From the NCBI GenBank assembly GCA_015059335.1, contig SVAP01000001.1, positions 66,244 to 130,243 of the forward strand: a stretch of DNA of 64,000 bases. The letters are read 5' to 3'. Within the stretch, counting starts at the first letter, position 1, and every line of letters starts with the position of its first letter. The notes below the pieces were generated by a model. That model was not told where the DNA came from. It did no database searches and saw only the letters and a list, made by a program, of their open reading frames with translations. Below, one piece after another: positions 15,273 to 48,721 of this stretch. The stretch is from Bacillota bacterium (GTDB lineage: Bacteria; Bacillota_I; Bacilli_A; RF39; UBA660). Both the position numbers and the translations under genes were made by a program.

Positions 15273-15335
15273 CATTTTTTTATCAAGTTAAGAGTATTAT
15301 GGTGGTGCAACTCCACTAAACTTGTCTAGGAGGAA

Positions 15336-17686: not shown

Positions 17687-17691
17687 TTATA

Positions 17692-18642: not shown

Positions 18643-18652
18643 TGGTGATTAA

Positions 18653-25018: not shown

Positions 25019-25022
25019 TGTA

Positions 25023-27185: not shown

Positions 27186-27189
27186 TGAT

Positions 27190-27855: not shown

Positions 27856-27867
27856 GTGGTGAAATAA

Positions 27868-28827: not shown

Positions 28828-28828
28828 T

Positions 28829-29047
28829 ATGGATAATACAATAATGACAATATTAGGATTTATAGGTGCAATGATTCCAGTTGTAGCAGTAATAATTAAA
28901 CTAAATACCACTATCACTACATTAAATGTAACAATAGAACAATTAAATAAACAAATGAAAAATAGTCAATCTGATAGAAAAGATATACATGACCAATTAA
29001 ACGATCATGAAACAAGAATAACTATTTTAGAAAAAGATAGGGATTAA
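28829..29047 (+). CDS. small TM plus coiled-coil protein (XhlA/holin-associated-like)
   Basis: N-terminal TM helix, C-terminal coiled coil ...NDHETRITILEKDRD; SD gaggtg. Confidence 0.35.
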   Translation: MDNTIMTILGFIGAMIPVVAVIIKLNTTITTLNVTIEQLNKQMKNSQSDRKDIHDQLNDHETRITILEKDRD

Positions 29048-29094
29048 AGACACTATTAATTAGTGTCTTTTCTTATTAGAAAGGGTGATTAATA

Positions 29095-29469
29095 ATGTTC
29101 AAGATAGTAAATAAGGAAATACATTTAACTAGAGGAGATATAGCATGTATAGAAGTAAAAGCAACAAATGAAGATGGTACAGACTATACTTTTAAAGTGG
29201 GGGATGTAGTTAGATTAAAAGTATTCAAGAAAAAAGATTGTGGATGTGTAGAACTACAAAAAGATGTAGAAATAACAGAAGAAAGTACAAGTGTAGATAT
29301 AAATTTAGATGGCACAGAAACAAAAATAGGTGAAGTAATAAATAAACCTACTACTCTATGGTACGAAATAGAATTGAATCCTGAAACAAGTCCACAAACA
29401 ATTATAGGATACGATGAAGAGGGTGAAAAAATCTTTGTTTTATATCCAGAAGGGAACGATAAACTATGA
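29095..29469 (+). CDS. hypothetical tail-associated protein
   Basis: 124 aa; SD aagggtga. Confidence 0.4.
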   Translation: MFKIVNKEIHLTRGDIACIEVKATNEDGTDYTFKVGDVVRLKVFKKKDCGCVELQKDVEITEESTSVDINLDGTETKIGEVINKPTTLWYEIELNPETSPQTIIGYDEEGEKIFVLYPEGNDKL

Positions 29470-30290
29470 TAGATGCAAAAGAAAGTTTAAGTGGTAATGT
29501 ACCAGACAAACAAAGTCTAACAGGAGATTTTAAAATACAAGTAGCACCAACTCCAAATATAACGGTAGGAACAACAACTACATTAGAACCTAATTCAAAT
29601 GCAATAGTAGAATTAGATGAAGCGTCAACTAAGTTAAATCCTATATTCAATTTTGGAATACCTAAAGGGGAACAAGGTATTCAAGGAGAACAGGGAATAC
29701 AAGGAATACAAGGTCCACAAGGAATACAGGGTGAAATCGGACCTGCTAACGTTTTAACAATAGGTACAGTAACAAAAGGTGATAATGCTGCTGCTACTAT
29801 TACAGGTGATTCTCCTAATCAAACTCTTAACTTAGTACTTCCTAAAGGTGATAAGGGAGACAAAGGTGATAAAGGCGAAGTTGGTTCTATTGGACCATCT
29901 AATACATTAACAATAGGAACTGTAAGTAAAGGAAATGAAGCTCAAGCAACAATAACTGGTACTTCTCCTAATCAAGTATTAAATTTAGTACTTCCTAAAG
30001 GTGATAAAGGTGATACAGGAGAACGTGGTATTCAAGGTATTCAAGGTATTCAAGGTCCTAAAGGAGATACTGGGCCTCAAGGAACAAAAGGTGATAAAGG
30101 AGATACTGGTTCAATAGGTCCTCAAGGTCCACAAGGAATACAAGGACCACAAGGAATACAGGGAGAACAAGGACCGCAAGGAGAACAAGGTATACCAGGT
30201 AATGATTATGTTCTTACTGATGCTGATAAAACAGATATAGCAGGATTAGTATTAGCTAGTTTTCCAATAGCAGAGGAGGTTAGTTTCTAA
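29466..30290 (+). CDS. collagen-like (G-X-Y) repeat tail fibre protein
   Basis: runs of GEQGIQGEQGIQGIQGPQGIQGEIGP and GDKGDKGDKGEVG; internal duplicated roughly 45-aa segment. Confidence 0.7.
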   Translation: MIDAKESLSGNVPDKQSLTGDFKIQVAPTPNITVGTTTTLEPNSNAIVELDEASTKLNPIFNFGIPKGEQGIQGEQGIQGIQGPQGIQGEIGPANVLTIGTVTKGDNAAATITGDSPNQTLNLVLPKGDKGDKGDKGEVGSIGPSNTLTIGTVSKGNEAQATITGTSPNQVLNLVLPKGDKGDTGERGIQGIQGIQGPKGDTGPQGTKGDKGDTGSIGPQGPQGIQGPQGIQGEQGPQGEQGIPGNDYVLTDADKTDIAGLVLASFPIAEEVSF

Positions 30291-31336
30291 TGGCTAAATA
30301 TAGTATAGAAGATACAACTTTAACTAATATAGCAAATGCTATTAGAAACAAAACAGGAGATAGTGCAACATTAAAACCTAGTGAAATGCCTACAGCTATT
30401 GAAGGAATCGAAACTGGTAGTAGTGGCGAAATGAATGTGAAAATATTAACCAAAATGTCAGGTAATATTGATGGTAATCCTAAATATATATTACAAAGAC
30501 TTATAACCGAAATTCCAACAATAACAGTATCTGGTACTAGTATGCAGAGTGCATTTGAAGATTGTATCAATTTAACAAAAATTCCTACACTAAATACAAA
30601 TACTATTCGGAATATGCAAAATATGTTCCGAAACTGCGCTAAATTAACAGAAATACCATTATTAAACACAAGTAACGCAACAAATTTTTATTATATGTTC
30701 GCTGATTGTGATAATTTAATAACAATCCCACAATTCGATACAAGTAACGTAAAGGACATGAGTTATATGTTTTACAATTGTTATGCATTAGAATCAATTC
30801 CTTTATTGAATACATCTAACGTAACGAAAATGGACTATATGTTTTACAGTTGTCGCAGTTTATTAGAAATCCCACAATTCGATACAAGTAACGTAACGAA
30901 CATGAGTTATATGCTATACGGTTGCGATAATTTGATAACGATCCCTTTGTTAAACACATCAAAAGTAACAGCTATGACTTATGTATTTTATAGTTGCGAT
31001 AAGCTCAAAACTATACCGCAATTAGATTTATCCAGTGCAACATCTATTAATTATATACTGACAAATTGCCCTGCATTAGAGAATTTCGGAGGTTTTCTAA
31101 ATTTAGGCGCTGCTTATCTTACATCGAGAGCAGAAAACTACACTGCTTACAAATTAGATTTATCGAAATCTACAAAATTAACTCACGACAGTTTAATGAA
31201 TGTAATTAACGGTTTATACGATATTGCTACGTTAGGTTGTAAAATACAACAATTAACAATCGGGGCAACTAATTTAGCAAAATTAACAGCAGAAGAAATA
31301 GCAATAGCGACTTCTAAGGGATGGTCGGTTGCTTAG
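30290..31336 (+). CDS. BspA-type leucine-rich-repeat protein (putative receptor-binding protein)
   Basis: about nine tandem roughly 23-aa repeats of form IP(L/Q)(L/F)NTSNVTxMxYMFYxCxxL, visible also as about 69-bp DNA periodicity. Confidence 0.65.
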   Translation: MAKYSIEDTTLTNIANAIRNKTGDSATLKPSEMPTAIEGIETGSSGEMNVKILTKMSGNIDGNPKYILQRLITEIPTITVSGTSMQSAFEDCINLTKIPTLNTNTIRNMQNMFRNCAKLTEIPLLNTSNATNFYYMFADCDNLITIPQFDTSNVKDMSYMFYNCYALESIPLLNTSNVTKMDYMFYSCRSLLEIPQFDTSNVTNMSYMLYGCDNLITIPLLNTSKVTAMTYVFYSCDKLKTIPQLDLSSATSINYILTNCPALENFGGFLNLGAAYLTSRAENYTAYKLDLSKSTKLTHDSLMNVINGLYDIATLGCKIQQLTIGATNLAKLTAEEIAIATSKGWSVA

Positions 31337-31351
31337 AAAGGAGAATAAAAT

Positions 31352-31570
31352 ATGAAATTATTTACTTATACAAAACCAAGAATGATAGTAGCAGATGAGG
31401 GGAAACACATCAGAAATATAAATGATGTTTATGTACCAGAACATACTGACGAAGAAGGTAATCTAGTACCAGAACATTTTCCTTATTATTCGACTACAAT
31501 ATTTGTTCCAGATAATTTTACTGAAGAACAAATGTATGAATTATATATTGAAGAGCCAATAGGAGAATAA
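31352..31570 (+). CDS. hypothetical protein
   Basis: 72 aa; SD aaaggagaa. Confidence 0.4.
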   Translation: MKLFTYTKPRMIVADEGKHIRNINDVYVPEHTDEEGNLVPEHFPYYSTTIFVPDNFTEEQMYELYIEEPIGE

Positions 31571-31612
31571 AAGCAAACGAAATAATTAATTTTATAAAGG
31601 AGGTAGTATTAG

Positions 31613-31798
31613 ATGAAGAAAGCACTGAATGATGTAAAGAGCTTTGTAACAATACTATTCGCAATAGCTTTAGTTGCGTTACTGTTTATTGCTGTGTTTA
31701 AAAGTCAAAATATATTTGAAATAGTATTCTTATTATTTACTAATTTATGTACAGCAGTTTTTACATATTTTTTCACTAAAAAGAAAGAGGTAGAGTAG
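31613..31798 (+). CDS. holin
   Basis: 61 aa, two TM helices, charged C-terminus KKKEVE; directly upstream of the endolysin; SD aaaggaggt. Confidence 0.6.
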   Translation: MKKALNDVKSFVTILFAIALVALLFIAVFKSQNIFEIVFLLFTNLCTAVFTYFFTKKKEVE

Positions 31799-31800
31799 TT

Positions 31801-32490
31801 ATGACTATAAAACAAAAACAATTAAATTTAAAACATCTAGGATATTACAAAGGAAATATTGACGGAATATGGGGTAATGGAAGTAAAGAAGCAACAAAGA
31901 AATTTCAAAAAGCATATGGACTAGTTGTAGATGGTATTTTCGGGGCAAATACAGAAGTAAAATCTATTCAAGTATGGAAAGACATTCAAAACAAGTTAAA
32001 TAAGCATGGTTTTAGACTTTCTGTGGATGGTTTAGTAGGAACTAACACAATTAACGCCATCAAAGACTTTCAACTTAAAAACGACCTTTCTATTGATTAT
32101 ATAGTAGGTCCTAAAACAACGGCTAAATTAAATGCTGAGCCACTAAGTTGGAATGATATTAAATACTTCAAAAAATCAGAATTTACTTGTAAATGTGGAT
32201 GTGGTAGTAATAACATCTCATTAGAGTTAGTAAAAATCGCCGATGAAGTAAGAAAACATTTTGGTAAACCTATGACTATTACAAGTGGGACAAGATGTTC
32301 TAAACATAATAAAAATGTTGGTGGAGTATCTACTTCAAGACATTTATCAGGCAAAGCATGTGATTTCTATATCAGTGGTGTATCACAAAATCAAATACTT
32401 GACCTTACTAATAAATTAGTATCTCAAGGAAAATTAAGATACACTTATGGAATAGCAAATTCAAGTGCAGTTCACATGGATATATTATAG
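31801..32490 (+). CDS. endolysin: two PG_binding_1 repeats plus M15-type (VanY-like) peptidase domain
   Basis: LKHLGYYKGNIDGIWGNGSKEATKKFQKAYGLVVDGIFGANT repeated twice; C-terminal SGTRCSKHNKNVGGVSTSRHLSGKACDF...VHMD zinc-ligand pattern. Confidence 0.7.
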   Translation: MTIKQKQLNLKHLGYYKGNIDGIWGNGSKEATKKFQKAYGLVVDGIFGANTEVKSIQVWKDIQNKLNKHGFRLSVDGLVGTNTINAIKDFQLKNDLSIDYIVGPKTTAKLNAEPLSWNDIKYFKKSEFTCKCGCGSNNISLELVKIADEVRKHFGKPMTITSGTRCSKHNKNVGGVSTSRHLSGKACDFYISGVSQNQILDLTNKLVSQGKLRYTYGIANSSAVHMDIL

Positions 32491-35161: not shown

Positions 35162-35235
35162 AGGGAATTAGTTTAATGGTAAAATTTCGGTCTCCAAAAC
35201 CGCGGTTAAGTGTTCGACTCACTTATTCCCTGCCA
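35162..35235 (+). tRNA. tRNA-Trp (anticodon CCA)
   Basis: hand-folded: acceptor AGGGAAT/ATTCCCT, D-arm GTTT-AATGGTA-AAAT, anticodon loop CTCCAAA (U33, CCA, A37), T-arm AAGTG-TTCGACT-CACTT, discriminator G, encoded CCA. Confidence 0.75.
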
Positions 35236-36458: not shown

Positions 36459-38327
36459 ATGATAGATTATAATGAGTTAAGAAAACGACTTGAATATGAA
36501 AATACTATAAATAATTCGAAATCAGAACTTAAAAAAGTTGAAGATTTAATAATTGAAATTGAAGGTCAATTAAATAATCTTGGAACAAAAGAGAATAGTT
36601 TAGAAATCGTTAAAAAAAACAATACAATAATAAATAAATTGTTTAATAATAAAAAAATTAAGGAACGAATAAAGATTGCCGAAAAAGATGTTGATGAATT
36701 TGTAAAACTACATGGTTCTAAAGAAGAAATCCAAACTAAACTGAATGATTTATATGAAAAAAAAAGATATTATGAAACATTAATAAAATCAATGGATAGT
36801 TCTAAATCTTTTGATAATAATCTTGTCGAAATGAATGAAGATGGAATTTTAGTAATCGATGCCGATAAGCATAATAATGTTGATATATCATATGGTCAGG
36901 AGGGAAAATTAAATAATGATGAATTTATGCTAGTTCACTCTACTGGGCATTTTCCTGATAATCACCAAATTTTATCTGGATATGATGGTAACAAAATTGA
37001 TAAAGAAAATACTTCATCAGAAACAGTAGAATTCGAATATGAAGGAGTAAGGAAAAGTTTTCCTAATTATTCTACAAGAAGAACAACTCACTTTATTTTA
37101 AATTCAGTTGTTCAAGACCATGGATTTGGAAAATTTGGAAGCGAATATATTGTGTTGGAAAATGCAAAAAACCATTCTGGCGAAATAAGAAGAAAAAGTG
37201 CTGGGGACACATGGATTCCACATTCGGTAGAAATATCTGATGCATCTATTCTTATGGTTAGACATGATGTCTATGACAAATTAACTGAAGAACAAAAAAA
37301 CATGTATAAAATAATTATATATAAGGGCGATAAAAAGAGAGCAGTAGAATTACTTTTAAATTCAATGGGATATAGTGCTTTAGAATATAATATAAACGAC
37401 ACTGGACACTCTCTGTCATCCGATATAAAAATAGAAGGAAATTTGAAAGCAAGAAACATTGTTATGAGTTATATAAACAATTATAAAGATTATTCAAAAG
37501 AAGATTTTTCTATTTCATCAGAGATGATGTCTAAAATGTTTGACGTCTGGTTTAAAGGTCATGGCGAAGGTAAAAATTCAAAAATGATATGGCGTGATGA
37601 TGAAAAAGTGAACAATAAAATTATTGAATTGTGTAAAGAAAAAAATATTGATCCCAATTTATTAAATTTTTATATTAAAATGGGTATAACATATGAAAAT
37701 GGAGTTTATAAATCACTACAATATGAGCAAATTTATAATTTATACGAATATTTTGATAATGAAGAAATTAATGTAGATTTTATTAATAATTATATAGAAA
37801 GTCAACATTTGCAAATTATTCAACAAAACATTAATAATAGTTCTATATTAGCAACTAAAACTAATAATGATGTTTCTAATATGAAGTTTGAGGATATAAA
37901 CAAACTAGAAAATTTAGATTACAGTAGGAATTTACAAATTCAATTAAACCAAGTAATTAATAGTATAAATGGTTTATTACATGCTGGTGGTGCAAATGTG
38001 TCTTTTACTGAAAATGGGTTAAAAATAAATTTGACAACTGATTATAATAATTTAACTAATTATGCTAATGAAGAATTTAAATTTTATCCTACAAAAGAAT
38101 GTGTTTCAGGTAATGATAAATGGAAAGAAGTAACTTTTATTATTGATTGTAAAGGATTAACATATCATGAAATTATTGATAAAGTTAAAAACTATGTTCA
38201 CTCAGTTAACAATAGATTATCATCGTCTATTTCAAAGTCAGAACAAATTGAGCAGTTAAAACAGTATAAAGATGAATTAACTAACACCCAAAAGATAAAT
38301 GTTGAAGAAGTTAGAAAGGGATTATAA
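36459..38327 (+). CDS. large unknown protein (622 aa), first gene of cargo island
   Basis: SD aaagtggtga; N-terminal coiled coil; -10 TATAAT at about 36408; no recognised catalytic motif. Confidence 0.55.
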   Translation: MIDYNELRKRLEYENTINNSKSELKKVEDLIIEIEGQLNNLGTKENSLEIVKKNNTIINKLFNNKKIKERIKIAEKDVDEFVKLHGSKEEIQTKLNDLYEKKRYYETLIKSMDSSKSFDNNLVEMNEDGILVIDADKHNNVDISYGQEGKLNNDEFMLVHSTGHFPDNHQILSGYDGNKIDKENTSSETVEFEYEGVRKSFPNYSTRRTTHFILNSVVQDHGFGKFGSEYIVLENAKNHSGEIRRKSAGDTWIPHSVEISDASILMVRHDVYDKLTEEQKNMYKIIIYKGDKKRAVELLLNSMGYSALEYNINDTGHSLSSDIKIEGNLKARNIVMSYINNYKDYSKEDFSISSEMMSKMFDVWFKGHGEGKNSKMIWRDDEKVNNKIIELCKEKNIDPNLLNFYIKMGITYENGVYKSLQYEQIYNLYEYFDNEEINVDFINNYIESQHLQIIQQNINNSSILATKTNNDVSNMKFEDINKLENLDYSRNLQIQLNQVINSINGLLHAGGANVSFTENGLKINLTTDYNNLTNYANEEFKFYPTKECVSGNDKWKEVTFIIDCKGLTYHEIIDKVKNYVHSVNNRLSSSISKSEQIEQLKQYKDELTNTQKINVEEVRKGL

Positions 38328-38342
38328 AAATGGAGGAAAGAT

Positions 38343-38994
38343 TATGAAAAATATAAAAATTAAAAAGTTAGAAAAATATGTGGATGAAGAACATGAGGAA
38401 ATTGTATTTTCAGTGTACAAAAATAAATCAGTGAATTATTATAGTTTTGCCTTTGAGTATGAATTAGAAGAAGGAGAAGGACAATATCCTCTAGAAGATT
38501 TACTAGATAAATTTAGTGTTTCCTGTCATGGAGATTATTATGGACAAGAATTTGAAGAGGATGGTGTAAAAAAAGCTATAGTAGAAGTAATTACATCATC
38601 TGACAGCATTAGAGAATTAATAGATATTTTAAGTTTATCAACGATTATCGATAAACAAGTAAATAATTTTACATTTAAAAATTATGAATATTTAGGTATA
38701 AACTATGGGGATGCAAAGATAATTATTAATGATAAAGAAATTATTGTCCCTATTTATGCAACTAGAAATGTTAGAAATGAAACAGAAACTTTCTGTATGA
38801 AATATCCAGAAGGACAACTTAGCAGTACGTTTAAAAAGGGTTGTGATATATCTGAATATATTAATGGTGATGTAGAATTAGAATATGTAATGTTAGATGA
38901 TTCAAAAGCATTTGTAATATACAAAAAAGATAATCAAGATTATCAATTAGTATATGATATAAAAGGATTTGTTAAAGATGAATTAATTCCGTAA
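38343..38994 (+). CDS. hypothetical acidic protein
   Basis: SD ggaggaaag; internal ATG preferred over overlapping 38299 start. Confidence 0.5.
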
Positions 38995-39009
38995 TTTAGA
39001 GGTGAAAAG

Positions 39010-39432
39010 ATGAAATTAATAGAAGAGAAGATTTTAAAAACTAGTCAACAACATGAGATTAAAAAAATGAAATATATATCAGAAAAATTTGTTGATATCA
39101 ATTATGTGTATGGCATATTATTAGGTTTAAAAAATAATAATGAATTTGTTTTTTATAGCGCATCAGCAAAAGATAGTTATCCATTAAGAGATGGAGGATG
39201 TATTGCTGAATGTAGTTCAATAAAAGAAATAGATGAATTTATACATAAAGTTGATAAATCCGAAAAAGAACAAGGAGCAGATTGGGAAGATATATTTATA
39301 TATGGCAAAATAAACGAAATTAAAATAGGTGTTACGTTTAGATTAGAAGAAAAAAATATTTGGATTAGTTGCCCTATAAATTTTGATTTTGATTTTGAAA
39401 AGTTCCTACTTGATTTAGAAAATAATATATAA
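39010..39432 (+). CDS. hypothetical protein
   Basis: SD gaggtgaaaag. Confidence 0.5.
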   Translation: MKLIEEKILKTSQQHEIKKMKYISEKFVDINYVYGILLGLKNNNEFVFYSASAKDSYPLRDGGCIAECSSIKEIDEFIHKVDKSEKEQGADWEDIFIYGKINEIKIGVTFRLEEKNIWISCPINFDFDFEKFLLDLENNI

Positions 39433-39447
39433 GAGAGATTTTTACAA

Positions 39448-39987
39448 ATGGATGAATTAGTAGTAGAAGTAGGAATGAAATTAACTCAAGATTTAATTTA
39501 TTATCATGATTTATTAGAAAATCATGGATTAAAACTGGTTTTTAGTTGTATTACTCAAGATTTATATTATACAAAGGATAATTTAGAAGGTATGACTGAA
39601 AATCAGATAAAAAACCATTGTATAAGATTAAGGATATGTAATGCTCTTAATAAAGAGAATAATAATACCGATAAAATTTATGAAAAAGAAAAAGAATTGA
39701 TTACCGATGGATATAAAAAGGTGTTCGATACAAAAAAGATTGATTTTCAATATTGTAATGATACAATGAAAAGTAGAGTTCAATTGCAAATTATAAAAGA
39801 TATTGGATTATTAGTTTATTATGATAATCCTGATTATTATAATTATCCACTTGAAGAACAAAGAAACTTATTGTTAGAAGAATTAAACACATATGGTTTT
39901 AATTTTAAAAATACTGATTTAGGATTAGACAAGTTAAGAACTTTATATTATAAAAAAGAAATGTATAGTTATAATCAAAATGGATAA
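39448..39987 (+). CDS. hypothetical protein
   Basis: compact spacing in operon. Confidence 0.5.
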   Translation: MDELVVEVGMKLTQDLIYYHDLLENHGLKLVFSCITQDLYYTKDNLEGMTENQIKNHCIRLRICNALNKENNNTDKIYEKEKELITDGYKKVFDTKKIDFQYCNDTMKSRVQLQIIKDIGLLVYYDNPDYYNYPLEEQRNLLLEELNTYGFNFKNTDLGLDKLRTLYYKKEMYSYNQNG

Positions 39988-40061
39988 TATTTTATTTTTT
40001 GAATAATAATACATATTGTTTTTAAATTTGTTACAATATTTAATAAAAAGGCAGTGATGAA

Positions 40062-40628
40062 ATGAATAAAAAGTATGTAAAAGTAATGTTTGGAACAACT
40101 AGTGGTGCTAAAAGTGATTTTGAATATAAACTTAATGAAGTCAATATTAGTAATAATTGGAATCCGAAAGCAACTAGTGGAAAAGATTTTGGTGGTTTTA
40201 ATTATACAACCGAAGATTGTATATTAAGATGGCTTCACAGAGGTGACACTTTATATGATGTAGAAATACCAAAAGATGCAGAAAATATTAAACTTGATGG
40301 TGCAACAACTATCTATAGAACTAACAAAATAATAATTAAAAACCCAAGAAAAATAACTGATGAAATGGCATTAGAATTTTATAAGATTTCAAACATTCCT
40401 GAAAAGTCTTACTATAAAGCATTAGGTGTTGTTACAATTATGAATTATAAAAAAACAGCTTATGCTATTCTTAAAGACAAAGTTAATTTTGGTAACATTA
40501 AAGAAGTATTAGATGAATGGAATGATTTTATTAGTCATGGTGGAAAAAATGACAGAAAAGACATTAATGGATTTGTTAAAGAAATTAATGATCATTTATA
40601 CAAAATTAAGAATTCTATTTCTGAATAG
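40062..40628 (+). CDS. hypothetical protein
   Basis: SD aaaggcagtga. Confidence 0.5.
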   Translation: MNKKYVKVMFGTTSGAKSDFEYKLNEVNISNNWNPKATSGKDFGGFNYTTEDCILRWLHRGDTLYDVEIPKDAENIKLDGATTIYRTNKIIIKNPRKITDEMALEFYKISNIPEKSYYKALGVVTIMNYKKTAYAILKDKVNFGNIKEVLDEWNDFISHGGKNDRKDINGFVKEINDHLYKIKNSISE

Positions 40629-40663
40629 AAGAAATATTAAATTTTATAGGAGGAATTGTAAAT

Positions 40664-41380
40664 ATGGAAAATGAAGTTTATAATGAAATAATAGAAAAAT
40701 ATCATATTCAAAATTATATGGATTTATTATCAGTGTGTTTAGGTCAAGGAAAGGCACGACAAAAAAAGTTTATAGAATATTTAGGAGATAATGCAGATAA
40801 AGATTTTTCTGTAGATGTTCCAAATGCAAAATTGACTATTGGAAGTTTAACTTTTGATATAGAATTCATTGGTTCTTCATCACAAAGTGATGGAACATGG
40901 TTATGGGCAGATGCTAACAGAAGTTTTATGAAAGAACATACTCAAACAGTTAAACAATTATATAGTATTGGAAAAAAATATAATATAAAGGAATTTTTAG
41001 AAGCAAAATCACAATTATCAACTGAAATTACTGCACATAATATGTCAAAAATTGCTTGTATATTATTAAGTAATAATTTATGTTATTATGCAGGAACTGA
41101 CAGTGGAATAACATTGTCAATGTTTGTTAAAAATTTACCTAGTTCAATATATGAACCAATAGATACTATAAAATTCAATACTATTGTTTTAGAATGTATA
41201 AGTTCATATAATATCAATCATAAATTATTTGTTCAAAGTTTTTTAGAAATGAATAAATGTATCGTTAGTTTTGAGGATAATAAAACAATTGGTACTTGGG
41301 AAAATGGTAATAAATACATTGTAGAATTTGATGAGAACGGTAGAGTTAAAAATGCTAATATGAATATGATTAGTAATTAA
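40664..41380 (+). CDS. hypothetical protein
   Basis: SD ataggagga. Confidence 0.5.
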   Translation: MENEVYNEIIEKYHIQNYMDLLSVCLGQGKARQKKFIEYLGDNADKDFSVDVPNAKLTIGSLTFDIEFIGSSSQSDGTWLWADANRSFMKEHTQTVKQLYSIGKKYNIKEFLEAKSQLSTEITAHNMSKIACILLSNNLCYYAGTDSGITLSMFVKNLPSSIYEPIDTIKFNTIVLECISSYNINHKLFVQSFLEMNKCIVSFEDNKTIGTWENGNKYIVEFDENGRVKNANMNMISN

Positions 41381-41463
41381 TATTATAAAGAAAAAAATAC
41401 TGAATTATTTAACATTAAATTTAATACTTCAGAAGAAAATTCAAATATACAAAAATTTTCCAA

Positions 41464-41495
41464 AGAAAAGTGCAATAATGCACTTTTTCTTTTTG
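41464..41495 (+). terminator. rho-independent terminator
   Basis: AGTGCA-ATAA-TGCACT followed by TTTTTCTTTTT. Confidence 0.55.
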
Positions 41496-41667
41496 AAACT
41501 ACACTACTCTATTATATTCAAAATCACTTTTTGTAAAGTAAATGTTAAAAAGCTGTATATTATTTTAGATTTTAATTATTTTTGATATAATGTAACTGTA
41601 ATATCATTAATGTTAATTATCAAAGTGAAAAATAAAGTTAATTATATATTATGAAAGAAAGTGAAAT

Positions 41668-42213
41668 ATGTATTCAGTAGAAGAAAAAGCAATTAAGTTT
41701 GTTATTAAAGCATTTGAAAATAAAAAAAGAATTAAAGAAAATATTAATTTATCATTTCATAGTATTTCGGTTGGTTTTATGTTGAAAGATATTGGCTGTG
41801 GTGAGGATGTTGTTGTTAGTGGATTACTACATGACATTATAGAAGATACTAATTATAATTACGACTATATATTAAATATGTTTGGTAAAAATATTGCCGA
41901 TAATGTTCTTGCACTTTCTGAAAATCAAAATATTACAAACTTTAAAGAATGCAAATTAGAATTTATAAATAGATTGTATAATCAAAATAAAAATATTATT
42001 TTAATTGAAGTTGCAGATAAATTACACAATTTGCTTTCTGATTATAATTTATGGAAAGAAAAAGGTAAAGATGCCCTATCAACATTATCGACTACTTATG
42101 AAATGAACAAATGGTATTATTTAGAAATGAAAAAGTTATTTAATGATAAGTTAGATAAAAATAATAGTTTATTGGTAAGATATAATGAGATTTGTGATTT
42201 ATATTTTAAATAG
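41668..42213 (+). CDS. small alarmone hydrolase (RelA/SpoT-type HD domain, Mesh1/SAH-like)
   Basis: HSISVGFML...VVVSGLLHDIIEDT...FGKNIADNVLALSE matches the (p)ppGpp-hydrolase HD signature (H...AALLHDvvEDT...FG..va.lV); 181 aa with no synthetase domain. Confidence 0.7.
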   Translation: MYSVEEKAIKFVIKAFENKKRIKENINLSFHSISVGFMLKDIGCGEDVVVSGLLHDIIEDTNYNYDYILNMFGKNIADNVLALSENQNITNFKECKLEFINRLYNQNKNIILIEVADKLHNLLSDYNLWKEKGKDALSTLSTTYEMNKWYYLEMKKLFNDKLDKNNSLLVRYNEICDLYFK

Positions 42214-42272
42214 TAAAACATGTTTATATAATGATTTGTATGACAATATATTATATCAATAAGGAGAATTGT

Positions 42273-43355
42273 ATGATGAATAAAAATGATAAAATACGTG
42301 GTTCTTTAATAGGTGGTGCAGTTGGTGATGCACTTGGATATCCTGTAGAATTTGCTAATTTTTTAAAAGATAAAGAGGTAACTAGATTTCAAGATAAAGG
42401 AATAATATCTGATGATACACAAATGACATTGTTTACTGCTAACGCATTAATATGGAGAGAAACAAGAGTTAATTTAAGAGGCATTGCAATGCAACCTTCT
42501 GACGCTATTTTCCTAGCATATAAAGATTGGTATAGTACTCAAAGTAATTATGACAATGAAAACTCTATTTCATGGATAAAAATATTACCTGAATTGAATG
42601 TACAAAGAGCACCAGGTAATACCTGTTTAAGTGCTTTATCATCAAATAAAAAGGGAACAATAGATGAACCTATAAATAACAGTAAAGGTTGTGGAGGTGT
42701 CATGAGAGTTGCACCAATTGGGATGTATATAAAAAATCCAGAAAAAGCAGGAATAATTAGTGCAGAAGCAAGTGCTATAACACATGGACATGCTCTTGGA
42801 GTAATTCCTGCCTATGTATTTGCTGTATTAATAAATTATTTAATAAATAATGATATTAGTATTGAGGATGCTCTTAATAAATCAATGGATTTGTATAATC
42901 AAAAATTCAATAAATATGAATTAAGTGATAAAATCGAATTTATTAATATTATTCAAAAAGTAATTGAATTAAGCAAGAAAAAAATATCAGATGTAGAGGC
43001 AATTAAATTAATTGGTGAAGGATGGGTTGCTGAAGAAGCATTTGCAATAGCAATTTATTCATGTTTAAAATATCCTAATAGTTTTGAAGATGCTATTGTG
43101 TGTGCAATTAATCATGGCGGAGATAGTGATTCAACAGGAGCAATTGCAGGTAATATTATGGGGGCGCATTTGGGATATTCTAAAATACCAAATTACTATG
43201 TTGAAGACTTAGAACTAAAAGATGTTATATTAGAATTAGCAGATGATATGTCAATAGATGTGCCTGTATCAGAATATAAGGAAGATAATGATAAATATTG
43301 GTTAAGTAAATACCTTTATTGCAGTAGAGATATAAATTTAAAAAATAAAGGGTGA
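42273..43355 (+). CDS. ADP-ribosylglycohydrolase (ARH/DraG family)
   Basis: N-terminal GAVGDALGYPVEF and GIISDDTQMT; C-terminal HGGDSDSTGAIAG; all are canonical ARH motifs; SD aaggaga. Confidence 0.7.
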   Translation: MMNKNDKIRGSLIGGAVGDALGYPVEFANFLKDKEVTRFQDKGIISDDTQMTLFTANALIWRETRVNLRGIAMQPSDAIFLAYKDWYSTQSNYDNENSISWIKILPELNVQRAPGNTCLSALSSNKKGTIDEPINNSKGCGGVMRVAPIGMYIKNPEKAGIISAEASAITHGHALGVIPAYVFAVLINYLINNDISIEDALNKSMDLYNQKFNKYELSDKIEFINIIQKVIELSKKKISDVEAIKLIGEGWVAEEAFAIAIYSCLKYPNSFEDAIVCAINHGGDSDSTGAIAGNIMGAHLGYSKIPNYYVEDLELKDVILELADDMSIDVPVSEYKEDNDKYWLSKYLYCSRDINLKNKG

Positions 43356-43359
43356 TAAG

Positions 43360-44568
43360 ATGGAAATAATTAAAGAAAAATCAAAGAATTGTTGTATATT
43401 TAATAAACCAGAGTTAGAATTTAAAGAAAATAAAGATTTTAGTGTAGTAAAGGAATATGGTGAAATACCAGCACCAAATAACTGTACAAGAAATTTATTG
43501 AAATGTAATAAATGTGGAGCACTTTTTCTATCACAGTCTTTGGAATGGAACATAGATGGAAATGATAATTATTATACCGACTATATTCAAGTAAAAGATA
43601 TTATAGAAGCAGATAAGTTAAACAATCAATTGGATGCTTTAAAATTTAGAAACAAGAATAATCCCATGATTATGATTGATAGTGATAATACAGTTCGATA
43701 TATATTCCCAGAATCTAATACTAATGATGAACAAGAATATGCAAAGGAATTAGTTGAAAATGCTGAAAAAATAATTAAATCTATAGAACAACAAGAATCT
43801 GAACAAGTCAATGACCAATCTAAAAAAATCATTGATACAACTGTTAAAGTTGAAATTGATAAGAACGAATACGATATATTAAAAAAACTTGAACAAGAGT
43901 ATATGGATTTTGAATTTGTTGATTTTGCTATAAAACTTTATAGTGGTAGTGTTATACCAATAAATCATCCAAATTATAATGATGATAGAATTGATATAGA
44001 GATTTTTGGATTAGATAAATATTCTATTAATATTAATGGACAAAAATATAATATTAATAGTCAACAATTATTTAATAAAATCAAATCATTTGTTACAAAT
44101 AATCTAGATACATTAATTAAATGTTCAAAAGCACAAAATAATTTATATTTAAATTCTAATTCCTATGAAGGTGGAAATTCTAGTTATATTAAAATAAAAT
44201 ACGGACAGTTAATCATATATATTAATGGACAAGTAAGCGGTAATATTGGGAATTTTTGTGAACAATTTATTGATATTGTTAAAAAACTAATTATTGATGA
44301 GGGTGAAAAAACAAATTTTAATTATTTTGATGAAATGATTGGAAAAATTAAAGATGAAAAGAAAACCGACCTTGAAGATGAATTCACAAAATATTGTAAA
44401 CTTTATGAAGAAAAATTTGGCAAAAAAGCATATATTGCTGAACCTGGTGGAACAAAAGAACAAACAATAAATGCAATTAAAATTTGTTTAGAAAAAGATG
44501 AAGATTTATTAGATAAAATACTGTATCCTACTGGTGATGATGACATAAATAATAGAGTAATGTATTAA
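43360..44568 (+). CDS. hypothetical protein with N-terminal zinc-ribbon-like CxxC...CxxC
   Basis: NNCTRNLLKCNKCGALF; SD aagggtga. Confidence 0.5.
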   Translation: MEIIKEKSKNCCIFNKPELEFKENKDFSVVKEYGEIPAPNNCTRNLLKCNKCGALFLSQSLEWNIDGNDNYYTDYIQVKDIIEADKLNNQLDALKFRNKNNPMIMIDSDNTVRYIFPESNTNDEQEYAKELVENAEKIIKSIEQQESEQVNDQSKKIIDTTVKVEIDKNEYDILKKLEQEYMDFEFVDFAIKLYSGSVIPINHPNYNDDRIDIEIFGLDKYSININGQKYNINSQQLFNKIKSFVTNNLDTLIKCSKAQNNLYLNSNSYEGGNSSYIKIKYGQLIIYINGQVSGNIGNFCEQFIDIVKKLIIDEGEKTNFNYFDEMIGKIKDEKKTDLEDEFTKYCKLYEEKFGKKAYIAEPGGTKEQTINAIKICLEKDEDLLDKILYPTGDDDINNRVMY

Positions 44569-44598
44569 AAATATATACAAAAAAGGAGAAATTTAATA

Positions 44599-45042
44599 AT
44601 GGATGTTTTTATTAAACCGTTAGAAGGAATTATTATTAATAACAAAAATATAAATTTGGGAATGAATAAAGAAGATATTATTTCAATTTTAGGAGACCCA
44701 GAGATAATTTATAATAGGAAATATTGTACTAGAAGTTATTATTATAATAGTGAACTTGCTATAGATTATGATCTAAATAATAATGTAGAGTTTATTGAAT
44801 TTTTAGGTGGAATAGAAGGTAATCTAAATCCTATAATTTACGATTTTTCAATATTTAAAGAAGATGATGAAAAAATAATTAATTTATTAAAAGAAAAAAA
44901 TAAAGGGATTGTTGATGATTCAAATAAACCTTATTCCTATGTTTTTCATAAAATTAGCGTTGGTGTTTCAAAAGAACTTAATAGTGAACAAAAAAATCAA
45001 ATTTCTACAATAGGTATTGGAGTAAAGGAATATTATTCATGA
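44599..45042 (+). CDS. hypothetical protein
   Basis: SD aaaaggagaa. Confidence 0.5.
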   Translation: MDVFIKPLEGIIINNKNINLGMNKEDIISILGDPEIIYNRKYCTRSYYYNSELAIDYDLNNNVEFIEFLGGIEGNLNPIIYDFSIFKEDDEKIINLLKEKNKGIVDDSNKPYSYVFHKISVGVSKELNSEQKNQISTIGIGVKEYYS

Positions 45043-45737
45043 CAAGAGAACAATATAAGCAAAGCGTTAAAGATATTATGATTCACAAAAACCCCTATGG
45101 TGTATATCATCAACAGAATTTTAATACATACCAAGCATATGATGAAATGACTCCTATAAATTCAGATATTATAAATAACATGCCTAATGCATCAATTGTT
45201 TTAAGTGAACAAGTTTATGAAATGTTATTAGCCGTTCAAGAAGCAACAATATCAACAAATCAAGAATTTCCTTTTTTTCTATATGGTAAAGAAACGGGAA
45301 ATAATCAAATAGAATTTACTGAGTTTATGTCAGCAAGTAATAATAGACAAAATGCTGCTGCTAGTTTTAATCAAACAATGTTAAATAATTTGCAAAGTAG
45401 AATTAATGGCAATTTAAATAATGGACTAGTAGTTTGTCATGGACATTCACATCCACCAATAGGAAATTTTCATCAGAATTTTTCACTAGGTGATTTCACA
45501 TCATATATGGAAATGAATCAAGAAAACTCTGTATTCAAAAATAAACAAGTAGAACTTACAAGTTGTTTAGTAACTAGTACAGGTGATATAAATTTTGTTT
45601 TCTATGATAATGCAAATCAAAATTTTTATAGATTTACAAATGTATTTGTTAAAGATGCTAACAATAACTATACACCTGTTAATTGTTATGGTATGAATCA
45701 ATCAGAACAACTAAGCAATGGTGGAATAACAAGATAA
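45039..45737 (+). CDS. putative JAB/MPN-like metalloprotein
   Basis: VVCHGHSHPPIGNFHQNFSLGDF resembles the JAMM motif HSHP...S-x-x-D, but with longer spacing; an upstream Glu is present. Confidence 0.35.
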   Translation: MTREQYKQSVKDIMIHKNPYGVYHQQNFNTYQAYDEMTPINSDIINNMPNASIVLSEQVYEMLLAVQEATISTNQEFPFFLYGKETGNNQIEFTEFMSASNNRQNAAASFNQTMLNNLQSRINGNLNNGLVVCHGHSHPPIGNFHQNFSLGDFTSYMEMNQENSVFKNKQVELTSCLVTSTGDINFVFYDNANQNFYRFTNVFVKDANNNYTPVNCYGMNQSEQLSNGGITR

Positions 45738-45855
45738 ATAATCAATGTTTTATGTATTGATTATTTTTTTTATATTTGTTGTGTAAACTTTTTTGGTTTT
45801 CATTAACAAAAATGCATTTTGTGATATAATTGTTTTATAAGATAGGAGAAATAAA

Positions 45856-46258
45856 TATGTTGGTAAAAAAATTTAAGGAAGATTATATTGATAAAAGTAT
45901 GGTGGAATTAGTAAAAGAAAGAAACAAGATACTTGAAAATATAAAAAATTATGAAGATAAATTTATATTTAATAATCCTAATTATAGTGAGGTTATGTAT
46001 TCAAAACCTAGTCCAAAAACAATGTATGAAATAAATAATGAAGATTTAATAATGTTAACTGAATTAATTATGGAAAAAAATAAAATAGGAAATACAGACA
46101 AATGTCAAAACCTAATTGATGAATATGTAAAAAAATTTGGAGGATTCCCACATTATTTGTTTATGGGGGCAGATGAAGAAATTATAATTCAAACAATAAA
46201 AAATGCATTAAATAGTGGAAAAGAAATATCAACAAGTGAGTCAAATATTGATTATTAA
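45856..46258 (+). CDS. hypothetical protein
   Basis: extended -10 TGnTATAAT at about 45815 and SD taggagaaa. Confidence 0.5.
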
Positions 46259-46293
46259 TGATTATATTAAACTAATAAAGGATGTGAGTAAAA

Positions 46294-47232
46294 ATGTATA
46301 ATGAGTCAATTAAAGCAGAAAATAAAATAATAACTAATAATGATTTAACGCAAATATTTCAAGCAATGGGAGAAACATTAAAAAAGTATCAAAAAATAGC
46401 TATGCAAGAAGAACAAATAAATCAAAATGTAGATTATATGCAACGAGCTTATTCCTTTAAAGATGAAGGAAGTAAAATGAAAGTTACAGTTGATTTTTAT
46501 GATAATACGGATATAACTTTTGATAACTATGATAATTTTGCAAGTATTTTTTATAGTAGGTTAGATGAAATAAAAAGTTTAGATGTATATTATTCATTAA
46601 CATACAATGTAATTACACCAGCACCAGCTAGAAGTAATGAATATTATCATCAATCAATTCAAATGCATATTAACGAAAATAAATTAGATATATCAGTAAA
46701 ATTAAGTAGTCAAGATCATAAACTAGATGATTTATATAATTTAATTAAAAACATAGTATTAAATGCTCCTGAAAAATATGACATGATAATAAAGAAAAAA
46801 AGTTCAATAACAAATACAGTTGCTTTTGCAACTGGTATGATACCTGCAATAGTTATATCAACAATATTATTATTTGTTCCTGGAATAAACACAATATTTT
46901 TAAAAGGATATGTAGTATATCCAATATGCTGTGTGGTTCTAGCATATCTTATAGGAAGTGTTTTTGCATCATCAAAATTAGATAAATATTATAGTCCTAT
47001 TATGCCAGAAAAAAAATATGCTGGATATAGTGATGGACATGCAGTATATAAAGATGATGTGGATAAATTTGTTGACACAAGTGAAATATTAATTGGTAAG
47101 AAAGTTAATAATTTATCTCATAGAAATCAAATACAACAAGAATATAACAAACATAAAGAATTAATACCTAAAGAATTATTAGTATTAATAGTTATATCTT
47201 TAATAGTAATAATTCTAGGATTATTTGTTTAA
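46294..47232 (+). CDS. hypothetical membrane protein
   Basis: C-terminal 3 TM helices. Confidence 0.5.
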   Translation: MYNESIKAENKIITNNDLTQIFQAMGETLKKYQKIAMQEEQINQNVDYMQRAYSFKDEGSKMKVTVDFYDNTDITFDNYDNFASIFYSRLDEIKSLDVYYSLTYNVITPAPARSNEYYHQSIQMHINENKLDISVKLSSQDHKLDDLYNLIKNIVLNAPEKYDMIIKKKSSITNTVAFATGMIPAIVISTILLFVPGINTIFLKGYVVYPICCVVLAYLIGSVFASSKLDKYYSPIMPEKKYAGYSDGHAVYKDDVDKFVDTSEILIGKKVNNLSHRNQIQQEYNKHKELIPKELLVLIVISLIVIILGLFV

Positions 47233-47263
47233 TTATAACAAAATATTAAGTTGGTGATTATGT

Positions 47264-47761
47264 ATGAACTTATTTAACAGAAAATTAAATAGAAATTTAT
47301 TGGTAGATAAATTAATCAAGTATCGTAAAGAAAATGAATACAATGATAATAATTATTTTTTAGATTATATAAATATCATAACAGAAGAATTTTCAAAACA
47401 TAAATTTGTTAGTGATTCGGATTTTCTTCTAAAAGGCAGAAGAAAATTTTTAGTTAATGAATTTTATGATATATTAAAAGATGAAGATAATTATAACAAA
47501 AAACATTTCATTGATAATCCACTTTATTTTGCATTAGGTCATATAGAAGAAATATTATTTGGCATTAATACTGTTTATCCTGATGATGTTGATGAAGAAA
47601 AACGTGAAATAACAGAAAATGGAAGTTATAAAATTGCTGGTATATATATAAAAGAAATAAGAGATATAGATGAAAGATATAACAGAAAGAAAATTATATG
47701 TTTAGAAGAAAAACAATTAATAGAAAAAATGATTGAGGATTTTAAAAGTAAATTAAATTAA
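47264..47761 (+). CDS. hypothetical protein
   Basis: SD ggtgatt. Confidence 0.5.
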   Translation: MNLFNRKLNRNLLVDKLIKYRKENEYNDNNYFLDYINIITEEFSKHKFVSDSDFLLKGRRKFLVNEFYDILKDEDNYNKKHFIDNPLYFALGHIEEILFGINTVYPDDVDEEKREITENGSYKIAGIYIKEIRDIDERYNRKKIICLEEKQLIEKMIEDFKSKLN

Positions 47762-47778
47762 AAGAAATGAGGATTAAT

Positions 47779-48435
47779 ATGGAAATAATTGTACAAGGAA
47801 AAGGAAAAGAATTTTTTACTCCAAATGAAGTGACATTAAATTTTACATTTACAATAAAAGGACAAACATATGAGGAAGTTTTAAGAGAAGGTGTCAAAAA
47901 TGTACAATATTTTGTAGATGAATTACTATTACAAAATAATTTTGAAAAAGAGAATTTGAAGACAAGAAACTTTGTAATTAAAGAAGAAACAAGATATGAT
48001 AATTTAACACATCAAAATATTTTTGAAGGATTTTCTTTTAATCAATATGCAACACTAAAATTTGACTATGATAAAGAGAAATTAGCAACTATGATGGTTT
48101 CTATATCAAAATTAGATAATGCACCAATGTGTCAAGTGGACTTTGGTGTTAAAGATGAAAAAGACTGTAGAAAAAAGATATTAGCAAAAGCTTATAAAGA
48201 CGCTGAAGAACAAGCATTGGCAATTGCAGAAGCTGCTGGAAAATGTTTAAAACAATGTGCTAAAGTTGATTTCAAACCATTTACGAGTGATTATCATTCA
48301 AGAGCAAGATATGGTTCTGATATTATGTATGCAGAGAAAGCAGTTGCAGGTGTAGCGCAAACTATTGCTAATACGTTTACTCCAGAAGATATAGTATTGA
48401 CTGAAACGCTATATTGTTTATGGAACGCTGAATAA
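47779..48435 (+). CDS. SIMPL-domain (DUF541-like) protein
   Basis: KKILAKAYKDAEEQALAIAEAAGKCLKQCAKVDF resembles the SIMPL core pattern. Confidence 0.45.
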   Translation: MEIIVQGKGKEFFTPNEVTLNFTFTIKGQTYEEVLREGVKNVQYFVDELLLQNNFEKENLKTRNFVIKEETRYDNLTHQNIFEGFSFNQYATLKFDYDKEKLATMMVSISKLDNAPMCQVDFGVKDEKDCRKKILAKAYKDAEEQALAIAEAAGKCLKQCAKVDFKPFTSDYHSRARYGSDIMYAEKAVAGVAQTIANTFTPEDIVLTETLYCLWNAE

Positions 48436-48456
48436 TTGTTTGACGAGGTGTTTCAA

Positions 48457-48681
48457 ATGGAAATGATTAGTCCTGAAATTTTTAAAGAAAATAATACTAA
48501 TAAAACTTATGATGAATTATTAGAAATAAAGGAAAATATTAAAAATAAAATAGAAATACATGAAAAACTATTAAATGATATTTCATCATCTATTTTTTCA
48601 GAAGAAGATTTGAAACTAATGATAGATATGAATAAATCTTATTTAATTGAAATTGATAAATTAATAAACTCACTAAAATAA
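48457..48681 (+). CDS. hypothetical small protein
   Basis: SD gaggtg. Confidence 0.4.
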   Translation: MEMISPEIFKENNTNKTYDELLEIKENIKNKIEIHEKLLNDISSSIFSEEDLKLMIDMNKSYLIEIDKLINSLK

Positions 48682-48721
48682 TCTTAAGAGTTAAAGGTGT
48701 TTTGTTTAGGAGGTAATGACA

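Follow-up and report, generated by a model that had tools for sequence, protein, structure and literature searches.

Two enzymes expected to erase a signal or a modification are encoded side by side in the stretch of DNA analysed here (below, the window: 64,000 nucleotides of contig SVAP01000001.1, assembly GCA_015059335.1, from an uncultured gut member of the Bacilli). The first is a small alarmone hydrolase (SAH), i.e., a stand-alone RelA/SpoT-type HD protein, and the second is an ADP-ribosylglycohydrolase of the DraG/ARH family (ARH). Do the two form an evolved system? An earlier note on this DNA had suggested so, proposing that the pair coordinately neutralises nucleotide-pyrophosphorylating and ADP-ribosylating effectors. 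Both genes are predicted to encode intact enzymes, and comparative genomics lends no support to a coordinated function behind their pairing. We favour, with evenly balanced confidence, the reading that SAH and ARH are independently acquired cargo cassettes in the variable array of a conjugative-type island rather than an evolved two-enzyme system.

By its predicted domain content, the first gene is an intact stand-alone hydrolase of the RelA/SpoT homologue (RSH) type. Its 181-aa product matches Pfam HD_4 (35.4 bits against a cut-off of 27.2) and HD, with no further domain match. Hence the claim of the earlier note that the HD protein carries a (p)ppGpp-hydrolase signature and no synthetase domain holds: the quoted string is present (GLLHDIIEDT...MFGK), and HD_4 and HD are the sole Pfam matches. 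The protein has the make-up of a single-domain RSH hydrolase, that is, an HD_4 domain in a chain of ~150–200 aa free of RelA_SpoT synthetase, TGS and ACT domains, and its match to the NCBIfam model spoT_relA is limited to the hydrolase part (profile positions 23–131). The His, HD, ED, Asp and Asn residues of the RSH hydrolase site are conserved as H31, H55-D56, E59-D60, D117 and N121; they are invariant among 20 aligned homologues and align with the same motifs in the solved SAH and Rel structures 4yf1, 7qoe, 7qoc, 7qps, 1vj7, and 3nqw. The best relatives of solved structure are Lmo0812 (4yf1) and the SAHs 7qoe and 7qoc (E ~1e-16), and weaker matches include Rel/SpoT hydrolase domains, Mesh1, and the (p)ppApp hydrolase Aph1 (7smg, E 3e-5).

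The second gene is, to judge from its motifs, an intact dinuclear-metal ADP-ribosylglycohydrolase of the DraG/ARH type. Its product matches Pfam ADP_ribosyl_GH at practically full length (215 bits, E 2e-63, profile positions 1–286 of 287), and the terminal motifs named in the earlier note are indeed present. The motifs read are GAVGDALGYPVEF, ISDDTQ, and HGGDSDSTGAIAG; GDALGYPVEF (with the Glu of PVEF), SDDT, and GGDSDST are invariant across 24 homologues, in keeping with the G-D-x-x-G...E, S/T-D-D, and D-x-D-S/T pattern of the family. Relatives in the PDB are 8za7, 1t5j, and 6dre (Tri1). The protein is not a DraG equivalog (TIGR02662, 66.8 bits against a cut-off of 337), and no DraT or ADP-ribosyltransferase (ART) gene was recognised with Pfam in the 64-kb window. 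The ATG at 42231 is an improbable start codon, as a Shine-Dalgarno sequence, AAGGAG at 42261–42266, precedes the ATG at 42273/42276 and public gene calls use 42276; with this start, the gap between the SAH stop and the ARH start is ~60 nt. Among more than 8000 matches to the ARH, identity falls from 100% to 68% with nothing in between, which implies a very slowly evolving enzyme that has been either widely exchanged or widely retained. Thousands of relatives at 60–68% identity occur across gut Firmicutes. Altogether, the enzymatic assignments of SAH and ARH are as secure as sequence analysis allows.

The pairing itself was assessed from both sides, in scans of up to 80 loci each that returned mostly species-level representatives or short contigs. 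On the SAH side, an alignment-based scan with one genome per species yielded 39 loci with SAHs 39–83% identical to the window protein, all in metagenome-assembled genomes (MAGs) of uncultured gut Bacilli type; with one further locus (L006) the total is 40, and 35 of them have at least 1.2 kb of downstream sequence. A window-type ARH adjoined a diverged SAH at none of the sampled loci (0/40), and accordingly at none of the informative ones (0/35). On the ARH side, 133 loci from metagenomes, IMG/VR, and look-ups were reduced to 86 distinct close homologues, of which 72 have 700 bp or more of upstream sequence, and a profile search found no stand-alone SAH (HD_4) beside any (0/86 loci; 0/72 informative loci). 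No SAH relative above 38% identity was found in the viral contigs of IMG/VR. The exact SAH protein is present on more than 20 contigs, and the block is kept on all 23 contigs read. Adjacency is thus confined to near-identical copies of the island, and the coordinated neutralisation proposed for the pair finds no comparative support.

The neighbours of the two partners elsewhere are diverse. The nearest ARH relatives (65–67% identity) lie in three mutually different neighbourhoods: with a methyltransferase, a GNAT acetyltransferase, and a Metallophos_2 protein; with CTP synthase and a Nudix protein; and in the cargo of another serine-recombinase element. The gene directly downstream of the ARH gene, which encodes a 402-aa protein, also travels alone. 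Its 79% identical homologue lies in a small transposase-associated insertion between housekeeping genes and its 40% identical homologue in a Mob_Pre/integrase/Fic element, neither with an ARH or SAH gene beside it. Close to members of the most distant SAH clade, some weak matches to the ARH family occur (L040, L042, L043, L046; 26–30% identity, opposite strand, 4–5 kb off); they represent another subfamily, in conserved chromosomal synteny, and were not counted as pairing.

For SAH, a chromosomal origin within the same lineage is probable. The most distant SAH clade (39–46% identity) shows strictly conserved chromosomal synteny by neighbour clustering; the clade that includes the window gene has variable neighbours, but these are housekeeping genes. 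The closest homologue, from a goat-rectum Bacilli MAG (L009; 83% identity at the protein and 82% at the nucleotide level), is accompanied by NrdD, an NrdG-like activase, the peptide deformylase Def, an HD_3 nucleotidase, an isochorismatase, and a PnuC-type transporter of nicotinamide mononucleotide (NMN). A 70% identical SAH (L010) has NusG-, GltX-, UvrB-, and TsaD-like neighbours, as read from the sequence, and the 64% identical SAH of L006 has genes for queuosine salvage (Q_salvage), LtaS, and ABC transporters. The ratio of non-synonymous to synonymous substitution rates (dN/dS) is 0.13 between the window gene and L009 and 0.15 between the chromosomal L009 and L010. In terms of substitution pattern, then, the island SAH is a maintained copy of a lineage-native family, as opposed to a fast-evolving conflict gene. 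The G+C content at third codon positions (GC3) is uninformative as a test of foreign origin, because phage, cargo, and conjugation genes of the window share the same values of 0.08–0.19. The earlier note had itself named, as the outcome that would undo its proposal, ordinary housekeeping paralogues with host-typical codon usage and conserved chromosomal synteny. Half of this was observed: the SAH family is chromosomal, dN/dS is low, and GC3 is the same, but the arrangement in the window has no conserved chromosomal synteny.

The goat-rectum MAG offers two further observations. The regions 2358–3692 and 10001–17358 of L009 have a flavour of NAD and nucleotide salvage, with an HD_4-AAA_28 fusion, an Imp-YgjV gene, and NMN transporters. 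Positions 10076–11667 of a second contig (L044) contain another, broken SAH gene followed by an Imp-YgjV gene with 75% DNA identity to 49806–50306 of the window. These cases hint at a link between SAH, Imp-YgjV, and pyridine nucleotides.

The pair lies in a long co-directional array. The window has a G+C content of ~25%, nearly all of its genes are on the + strand, and its features are listed in Table 1.

Table 1. Features of the 64-kb window around the SAH and ARH genes (coordinates are window positions).
Feature	Position	Strand	Basis or remark
Prophage-type module: HTH_36, DnaB-like, P22-like portal, capsid, LPD23/SprT, tail collar, M15 endolysin	1203..32490	+	Domain matches
tRNA-Trp(CCA)	35162..35235	+	Between prophage lysis region and cargo array
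Co-directional accessory (cargo) array holding the SAH-ARH pair	36459..51700	+	Most members without recognised domain
Terminator-like hairpin with T-run, after DUF6882 gene	41465..41488	+	Sequence read; likely end of preceding transcription unit
Extended -10 promoter-like site: TTTAGA, 16-nt spacer, TATAAT with TG extension	41564..41591	+	Consensus match only
SAH, 181 aa, stand-alone RelA/SpoT-type HD, without synthetase domain	41668..42213	+	Pfam HD_4; invariant catalytic residues
ADP-ribosylglycohydrolase, DraG/ARH family, 359–360 aa	42273/42276..43355	+	Pfam ADP_ribosyl_GH; AAGGAG at 42261–42266
402-aa three-module protein	43360..44568	+	Start 4 nt past ARH stop
Orphan N6/N4 DNA methyltransferase	51777..52592	+	Pfam N6_N4_Mtase, 100 bits; between cargo array and conjugation genes
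Start of conjugation module: S26 signal peptidase, Flg_new, SpaA/thioester adhesin, sortase, TrbL/VirB6-like	54659..64000	+	Domain matches

The earlier note had placed the pair in a mobile island, and several features agree with this: the region is accessory and has no conserved chromosomal neighbourhood, a conjugation module follows it, and serine recombinases and cargo variants are found on related contigs. On an overlapping contig (L144), the conjugation module continues past the window with PrgI, a VirB4-type ATPase, an M23 peptidase, a NikA-like protein, and a MobL relaxase, the NikA and MobL genes lying ~25 kb downstream of the pair on the far side of the type IV secretion system (T4SS) genes. 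Another form of the island (L147 and L149, 12278–16414) passes from the array and Flg_new to a PemK gene, DUF6870, two tandem large serine recombinases, rsgA, and an aminoacyl-tRNA synthetase gene; here the adhesin-to-relaxase block (adhesin, sortase, T4SS, MobL) is missing and the SAH-ARH array is kept. The two recombinases mark the right end of the island, with housekeeping genes beyond. The cargo varies as well, being replaced to the left of 38325 in L003 and to the left of 53948 in L146. In L003 (1–6658, compared with ~36000–38325 of the window), five other genes stand in place of a 622-aa open reading frame (ORF), among them one for another DUF6882 paralogue (74% identical) and one for a protein that weakly resembles Zn_dep_PLPC; this variant shows cassette exchange at the array head. 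Cassettes of the ARH, Imp-YgjV, and o142/o165-like types recur in another serine-recombinase element (L141–143). Together, these data support the view that the pair belongs to the accessory part of an integrated, modular island of conjugative type, apparently in the chromosome of an uncultured low-GC gut member of the Bacilli.

Recognised members of the array, other than SAH and ARH, are DUF6882 (40664), SIMPL (47767), Imp-YgjV (49807), and HTH_26 (at ~50.4 kb). PHROGs and NCBIfam gave matches for SAH and ARH only among the array proteins, and a nucleotide search of phage and plasmid collections with the region 36–48.5 kb gave no match. PADLOC, which lists defence and not anti-defence, returned no match for ten array proteins; it follows merely that they are not known defence proteins. 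By eye, a 232-aa product (45039–45737, overlapping the preceding gene by 4 nt) shows HGHSHP...SLGD, a tentative resemblance to a JAMM/MPN metalloprotease motif that has no support from Pfam, NCBIfam, or PDB sequences. The spacing of this motif is longer than in canonical JAMM/MPN proteins.

Are the two genes transcribed together? The promoter-like site listed in Table 1 is 77 nt 5' of the SAH start, although such matches occur near background in AT-rich DNA (177 found against 160 expected). Terminator-like sites exceed expectation (7 found against 1.6 expected), and the first one on the + strand downstream of SAH is at 51177–51214, with none earlier. A transcript starting at the SAH promoter would therefore also cover many downstream genes. 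The statement in the earlier note that the pair is under one promoter is plausible in that no terminator-like site separates the two genes and a promoter-like site precedes them, but the unit would span roughly a dozen genes. Likewise, the pair had been described as opening the second unit of the island; SAH at most opens a sub-unit, as the co-directional array begins upstream, at ~36.4 kb. Judged from these signals, co-transcription of SAH and ARH within a long unit of about ten to a dozen genes is plausible.

Near the end of the array, a near-perfect hairpin with a 20-bp stem and a repeated AATCAGAAAAAAA unit (50758–50800, - strand) lies in the gap after the HTH_26 gene and overlaps a strong + strand promoter-like site (50799–50826). 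Placed where the cargo gives way to conjugation-proximal genes, it may serve as a terminator in both directions or have a regulatory function.

If SAH and ARH are independent cassettes, the SAH would be a copy of the chromosomal SAH of the lineage, and the side-by-side position would result from cassette shuffling in a cargo hotspot, with both genes on a shared long transcript. By analogy with characterised enzymes, SAH would remove the 3'-pyrophosphate of (p)ppGpp or (p)ppApp, and possibly that of pyrophosphorylated tRNA or the phosphate of NADPH, and ARH would strip ADP-ribose from modified macromolecules. Each enzyme would act on the product of a toxin and not on the toxin, and because of this protection regardless of the toxin is possible. 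By the same analogy, the two could buffer both host and element against toxins of the alarmone-synthetase and ADP-ribosyltransferase types, whether these come from phages, from toxin-antitoxin or abortive-infection systems, or from competing bacteria. Experimental precedents exist for both activities. Every toxic small alarmone synthetase (toxSAS) tested was neutralised by ATfaRel, by two phage SAHs, and by MESH1, and the authors proposed that phage SAHs serve to bypass alarmone-based abortive infection (PMC7229694). Aph1-type hydrolases confer cross-immunity to prophage Apk2 toxins (PMC12226406). An orphan SAH is protective in interbacterial competition, and SAH and Mesh1 enzymes can also dephosphorylate NADPH (PMC9765508). 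As for ADP-ribosylation, Tri1 reverses the modification made by an ART toxin, with ARH hydrolysis proceeding via a dinuclear metal centre (PMC8120803), and PARG reverses ART toxins (PMC11833690).

Several points weigh against independent acquisition. A gap of ~60 nt without an intervening terminator is also what one would expect of a functional pair. The samples described above may have failed to include rare, diverged copies of the pair. The left boundary of the island was not located, as a look-up of the DnaB-like protein gave only contigs shorter than 2 kb. Coupling of ADP-ribosylglycohydrolases (ARGs) to an alarmone-type HD phosphatase has been reported in other phyla (PMC9503650). Finally, in one other lineage a member of the ARH clade lies 1.3–3.1 kb upstream of a Rel-type HD enzyme, in an eraser/phosphatase cluster.

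The last cluster deserves description. In L237 (1533–9396; also in L194, L215, L218, and L224, one of these an IMG/VR contig), a single lineage carries a co-directional series of genes for a PTP-SAK phosphatase, a Phage_30_3/NADAR-like plus NT5C protein, an ARH homologue, a 178-aa protein without assignment, an M54-like metallopeptidase, a PP2C phosphatase, and a full-length but short (550–660 aa) Rel-type RSH. Possibly an ARG-centric system has here recruited an RSH; plain synteny is the alternative.

The functional counterpart of these points is an ARG-centric module in which ARH removes foreign ADP-ribose, the HD enzyme processes the released ADP-ribose-derived or NADP-type phosphoester, and the 402-aa protein serves as an accessory or chaperone-like component; we regard this as unlikely. 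It draws on Iyer et al., who list an alarmone-type HD protein as a partner, and on the lack of a recognisable ART or sirtuin in the window. NADPH dephosphorylation by SAH and Mesh1 (PMC9765508) would fit the proposed chemistry, and the L237-type cluster, ending in a Rel-type RSH, would fit the proposed architecture, albeit in one lineage. The ARH clade is moreover fused or adjacent to PTP-SAK/Tc-R-P, Metallophos_2, NT5C, PP2C, NADAR, Macro, PARG, and Nudix modules. Specifically, ARH relatives of 40–46% identity are fused or adjacent to NADAR, Macro, microbial-type PARG, and DUF1810 modules, and some occur with another ARG that is itself joined to a DSP-PTPase of the "Swiss Army Knife" or polymorphic-toxin-system type. 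Metallophos_2 proteins are found in L137 and L138. However, CX5R phosphatases occur at only 6 of the 86 close ARH loci, and this coupling of ~7% in the clade is far below the published ~55%. The HD partner shows no accelerated change and shares 83% identity with chromosomal stand-alone SAHs that lack a nearby ARG, and a stand-alone HD_4 neighbour is absent from all 86 close ARH loci. In addition, no Nudix- or WYL-HTH regulator is present, and the published systems come from other phyla.

Evidence from the 402-aa protein falls on both sides of this module. Proteins of the SUKH/SMI1-KNR4 type begin with a counterpart of its first ~140 residues, its core of ~230 aa also exists as a stand-alone family, and its last ~65 residues form a promiscuous uncharacterised module that occurs elsewhere as a C-terminal fusion on ARH homologues (P0129, with 73% identity, P0161, P0173, and P0297), which favours the module. 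The same C-terminal part is found on a Sel1-repeat protein and on a protein named in its source as a Nudix-type 8-oxo-dGTP diphosphatase, in which no Pfam domain was found. An AlphaFold model is confident for residues 168–398 only. The best fold match in the PDB is Mago nashi, a beta-meander sheet with helices on one face, which speaks for the module, but at E 0.08 neither it nor any other match is significant. Neither fold nor domain searches pointed to an ART identity of the 402-aa protein: the model has no ART-like fold and the sequence no Pfam match. No SUKH domain proper is present in the window; by its SUKH-linked N-terminal module, the 402-aa protein hints at a lead toward the world of immunity proteins. 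In other ARH homologues, the place of this C-terminal part is taken by another small module, DUF7675.

It is improbable, in our estimate, that SAH and ARH form a coordinated anti-defence pair, expressed early in the recipient so that what toxSAS/CapRel-type and ART-type (DarT, CmdT-like) defences produce is erased and establishment is aided. The one-directional array of a conjugative-type island with an orphan DNA methylase resembles known anti-defence islands (PMC11541004), phage SAHs neutralise all toxSAS (PMC7229694), and ARH genes are present in many phages. But the pairing is not conserved, no known anti-defence family was recognised in the array with Pfam, PHROGs, or NCBIfam, the origin of transfer (oriT) was not located, and NikA and MobL are ~25 kb downstream, beyond the T4SS genes. 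Furthermore, L147 and L149 have lost the T4SS/relaxase block and yet keep the array; its retention in T4SS-less variants argues for a benefit to the resident host over one to transfer.

Such a benefit might also be purely metabolic. SAH and ARH could be hitch-hiking paralogues without any role in conflict, SAH tuning alarmone or NADPH pools and ARH clearing O-acetyl-ADP-ribose-like adducts. The chromosomal SAH family of the lineage under purifying selection, with GC3 like that of the surrounding genes, agrees with this, as do the NAD and nucleotide salvage neighbours in L009, the recurrence of the Imp-YgjV transporter near SAH or ARH genes, the unusual conservation of the ARH clade, and the plain chromosomal contexts of some of its members (L137, L139). 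We nevertheless consider it very unlikely, given that the pair sits in the variable cargo array of a mobile island without housekeeping neighbours, that fusions to PARG, NADAR, Macro, and PTP-SAK in the ARH clade are typical of conflict systems (PMC9503650), and that the 402-aa neighbour shares a module with SUKH immunity-type proteins. The remaining possibility, that SAH and ARH are a self-immunity or toxin-antitoxin pair for a local toxin, was rejected because no recognisable toxSAS or ART is found beside either gene or anywhere in the window.

Independent cargo cassettes thus remain our preferred reading. If the two enzymes are protective, uncultured gut Bacilli with reduced genomes would be seen to spread "universal antidotes" horizontally, and one hydrolase might weaken entire classes of toxins, be they alarmone synthetases or ADP-ribosyltransferases. 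This, if true, would be of practical use in predicting the defences and toxins that a mobile element can overcome.

Outside the array, the window and related contigs contain other features. The prophage-type module also has a short tyrosine recombinase, and its structural part includes a mostly domain-less 2121-aa polyvalent protein (18653–25018) with LPD23 and a SprT-like zincin motif. To its 3' side follow a PemK fusion gene, a LytTR gene, the tRNA-Trp gene, and a divergent pair of XRE-type helix-turn-helix (HTH) genes; short XRE-type HTH genes are at 35711–35935 and 36012–36332. The PemK/MazF-type domain forms the C-terminal half of a 274-aa fusion protein (32585–33409) encoded just after the endolysin. 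A second toxin domain of this type is encoded by a short stand-alone gene in L147 (12278–12613), beside DUF6870 and the serine recombinases. For neither of the two domains was an obvious antitoxin recognised. The tRNA-Trp gene has its own promoter-like signal and a terminator-like hairpin (35246–35279), and may be element-borne. Its use as an attachment site was considered and dropped, as no partial tRNA repeat is present in the window, L144, or L147.

How does the locus compare with known systems? Phage and prophage SAHs, phage and immunity ARHs, the juxtaposition of an ARG with an alarmone-type HD protein, and cargo arrays of integrative and conjugative elements are already described. Because of this, and because the pairing shows no evolutionary conservation, we claim no new system; the SAH-ARH pair is a reasonable candidate for a toxicity-neutralisation screen and not evidence of such a system. 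The SAH resembles those borne by mobile elements (ATfaRel/PbcSpo, Salmonella phages PVP-SE1 and SSU5, prophage Aph1) in its length of ~180 aa, its HD domain, and its location on an element. It differs from them in that no toxSAS or Apk toxin was recognised in the window and in that its nearest homologues are chromosomal genes of the same lineage. In particular, among all + strand ORFs of 100 aa or more in the whole window, none gave a RelA_SpoT match with Pfam, and the SAH gene is flanked by DUF6882 and ARH genes in place of the adjacent RelA_SpoT synthetase gene that marks the type IV toxSAS-SAH and Apk2-IapK-Aph1 modules.

The ARH shares the DraG/ARH fold and metal-binding motifs with Tri1, the immunity protein against Tre1. 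In contrast to Tri1, it scores 65.6 bits with NCBIfam NF041672 (cut-off 490), has no N-terminal extension (the domain starts at residue ~10) and no adjacent ART effector, and comes from a different phylum. The ARG-centric systems described by Iyer et al. (2022) in actinobacteria, planctomycetes, and proteobacteria are predicted to counter foreign ADP-ribosylation, with an alarmone-type HD phosphatase among the interchangeable partners, phosphatase coupling in ~55%, and a Nudix-HTH or WYL-HTH repressor in ~42% (PMC9503650). Like them, the locus has an ARG without a cognate ART (neither ART nor SIR2 had a Pfam match in the window, consistent with the lack of a coupled ART or sirtuin in such systems), an adjacent alarmone-type HD protein, and clade fusions to NADAR, Macro, PARG, and DSP-PTPase. 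Unlike them, it is in a mobile island of a Bacilli genome, its HD partner recurs at 0/86 close ARH loci, and Pfam finds just short XRE-type HTH genes and no Nudix- or WYL-HTH regulator.

Anti-defence islands of conjugative leading regions (Samuel et al. 2024; PMC11541004), in which one-directional arrays with an orphan DNA methylase occur, are matched here by the one-directional array, the orphan DNA methyltransferase, and the conjugative-type element. No ArdA, SSB, Acr, or PsiB was recognised in the array with Pfam, PHROGs, or NCBIfam, and the locus differs from these islands in the ~25 kb to the relaxase, the unlocated oriT, and the persistence of the array in variants devoid of transfer genes. 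The acquired interbacterial defence (AID) clusters of gut Bacteroidales and polyimmunity loci (10.1101/471110) come from a different phylum and from a type VI secretion context that is lacking here, and, in contrast to them, no protein of the array matches a recognised immunity family and no SUKH domain is present. With these clusters the array nevertheless shares a co-directional arrangement of small and for the most part unrelated genes, mobility, a gut habitat, and toxin-free surroundings, and one member, the 402-aa protein, shares a module with SUKH immunity-type proteins. With low confidence, we suggest that the ~15-kb array (36.4–51.7 kb) might be a Bacilli counterpart of such acquired defence and anti-toxin islands, made up of shuffled toxin-agnostic erasers and SUKH-linked modular proteins of binding type, carried by a serine-recombinase conjugative island and kept after the loss of transfer genes.

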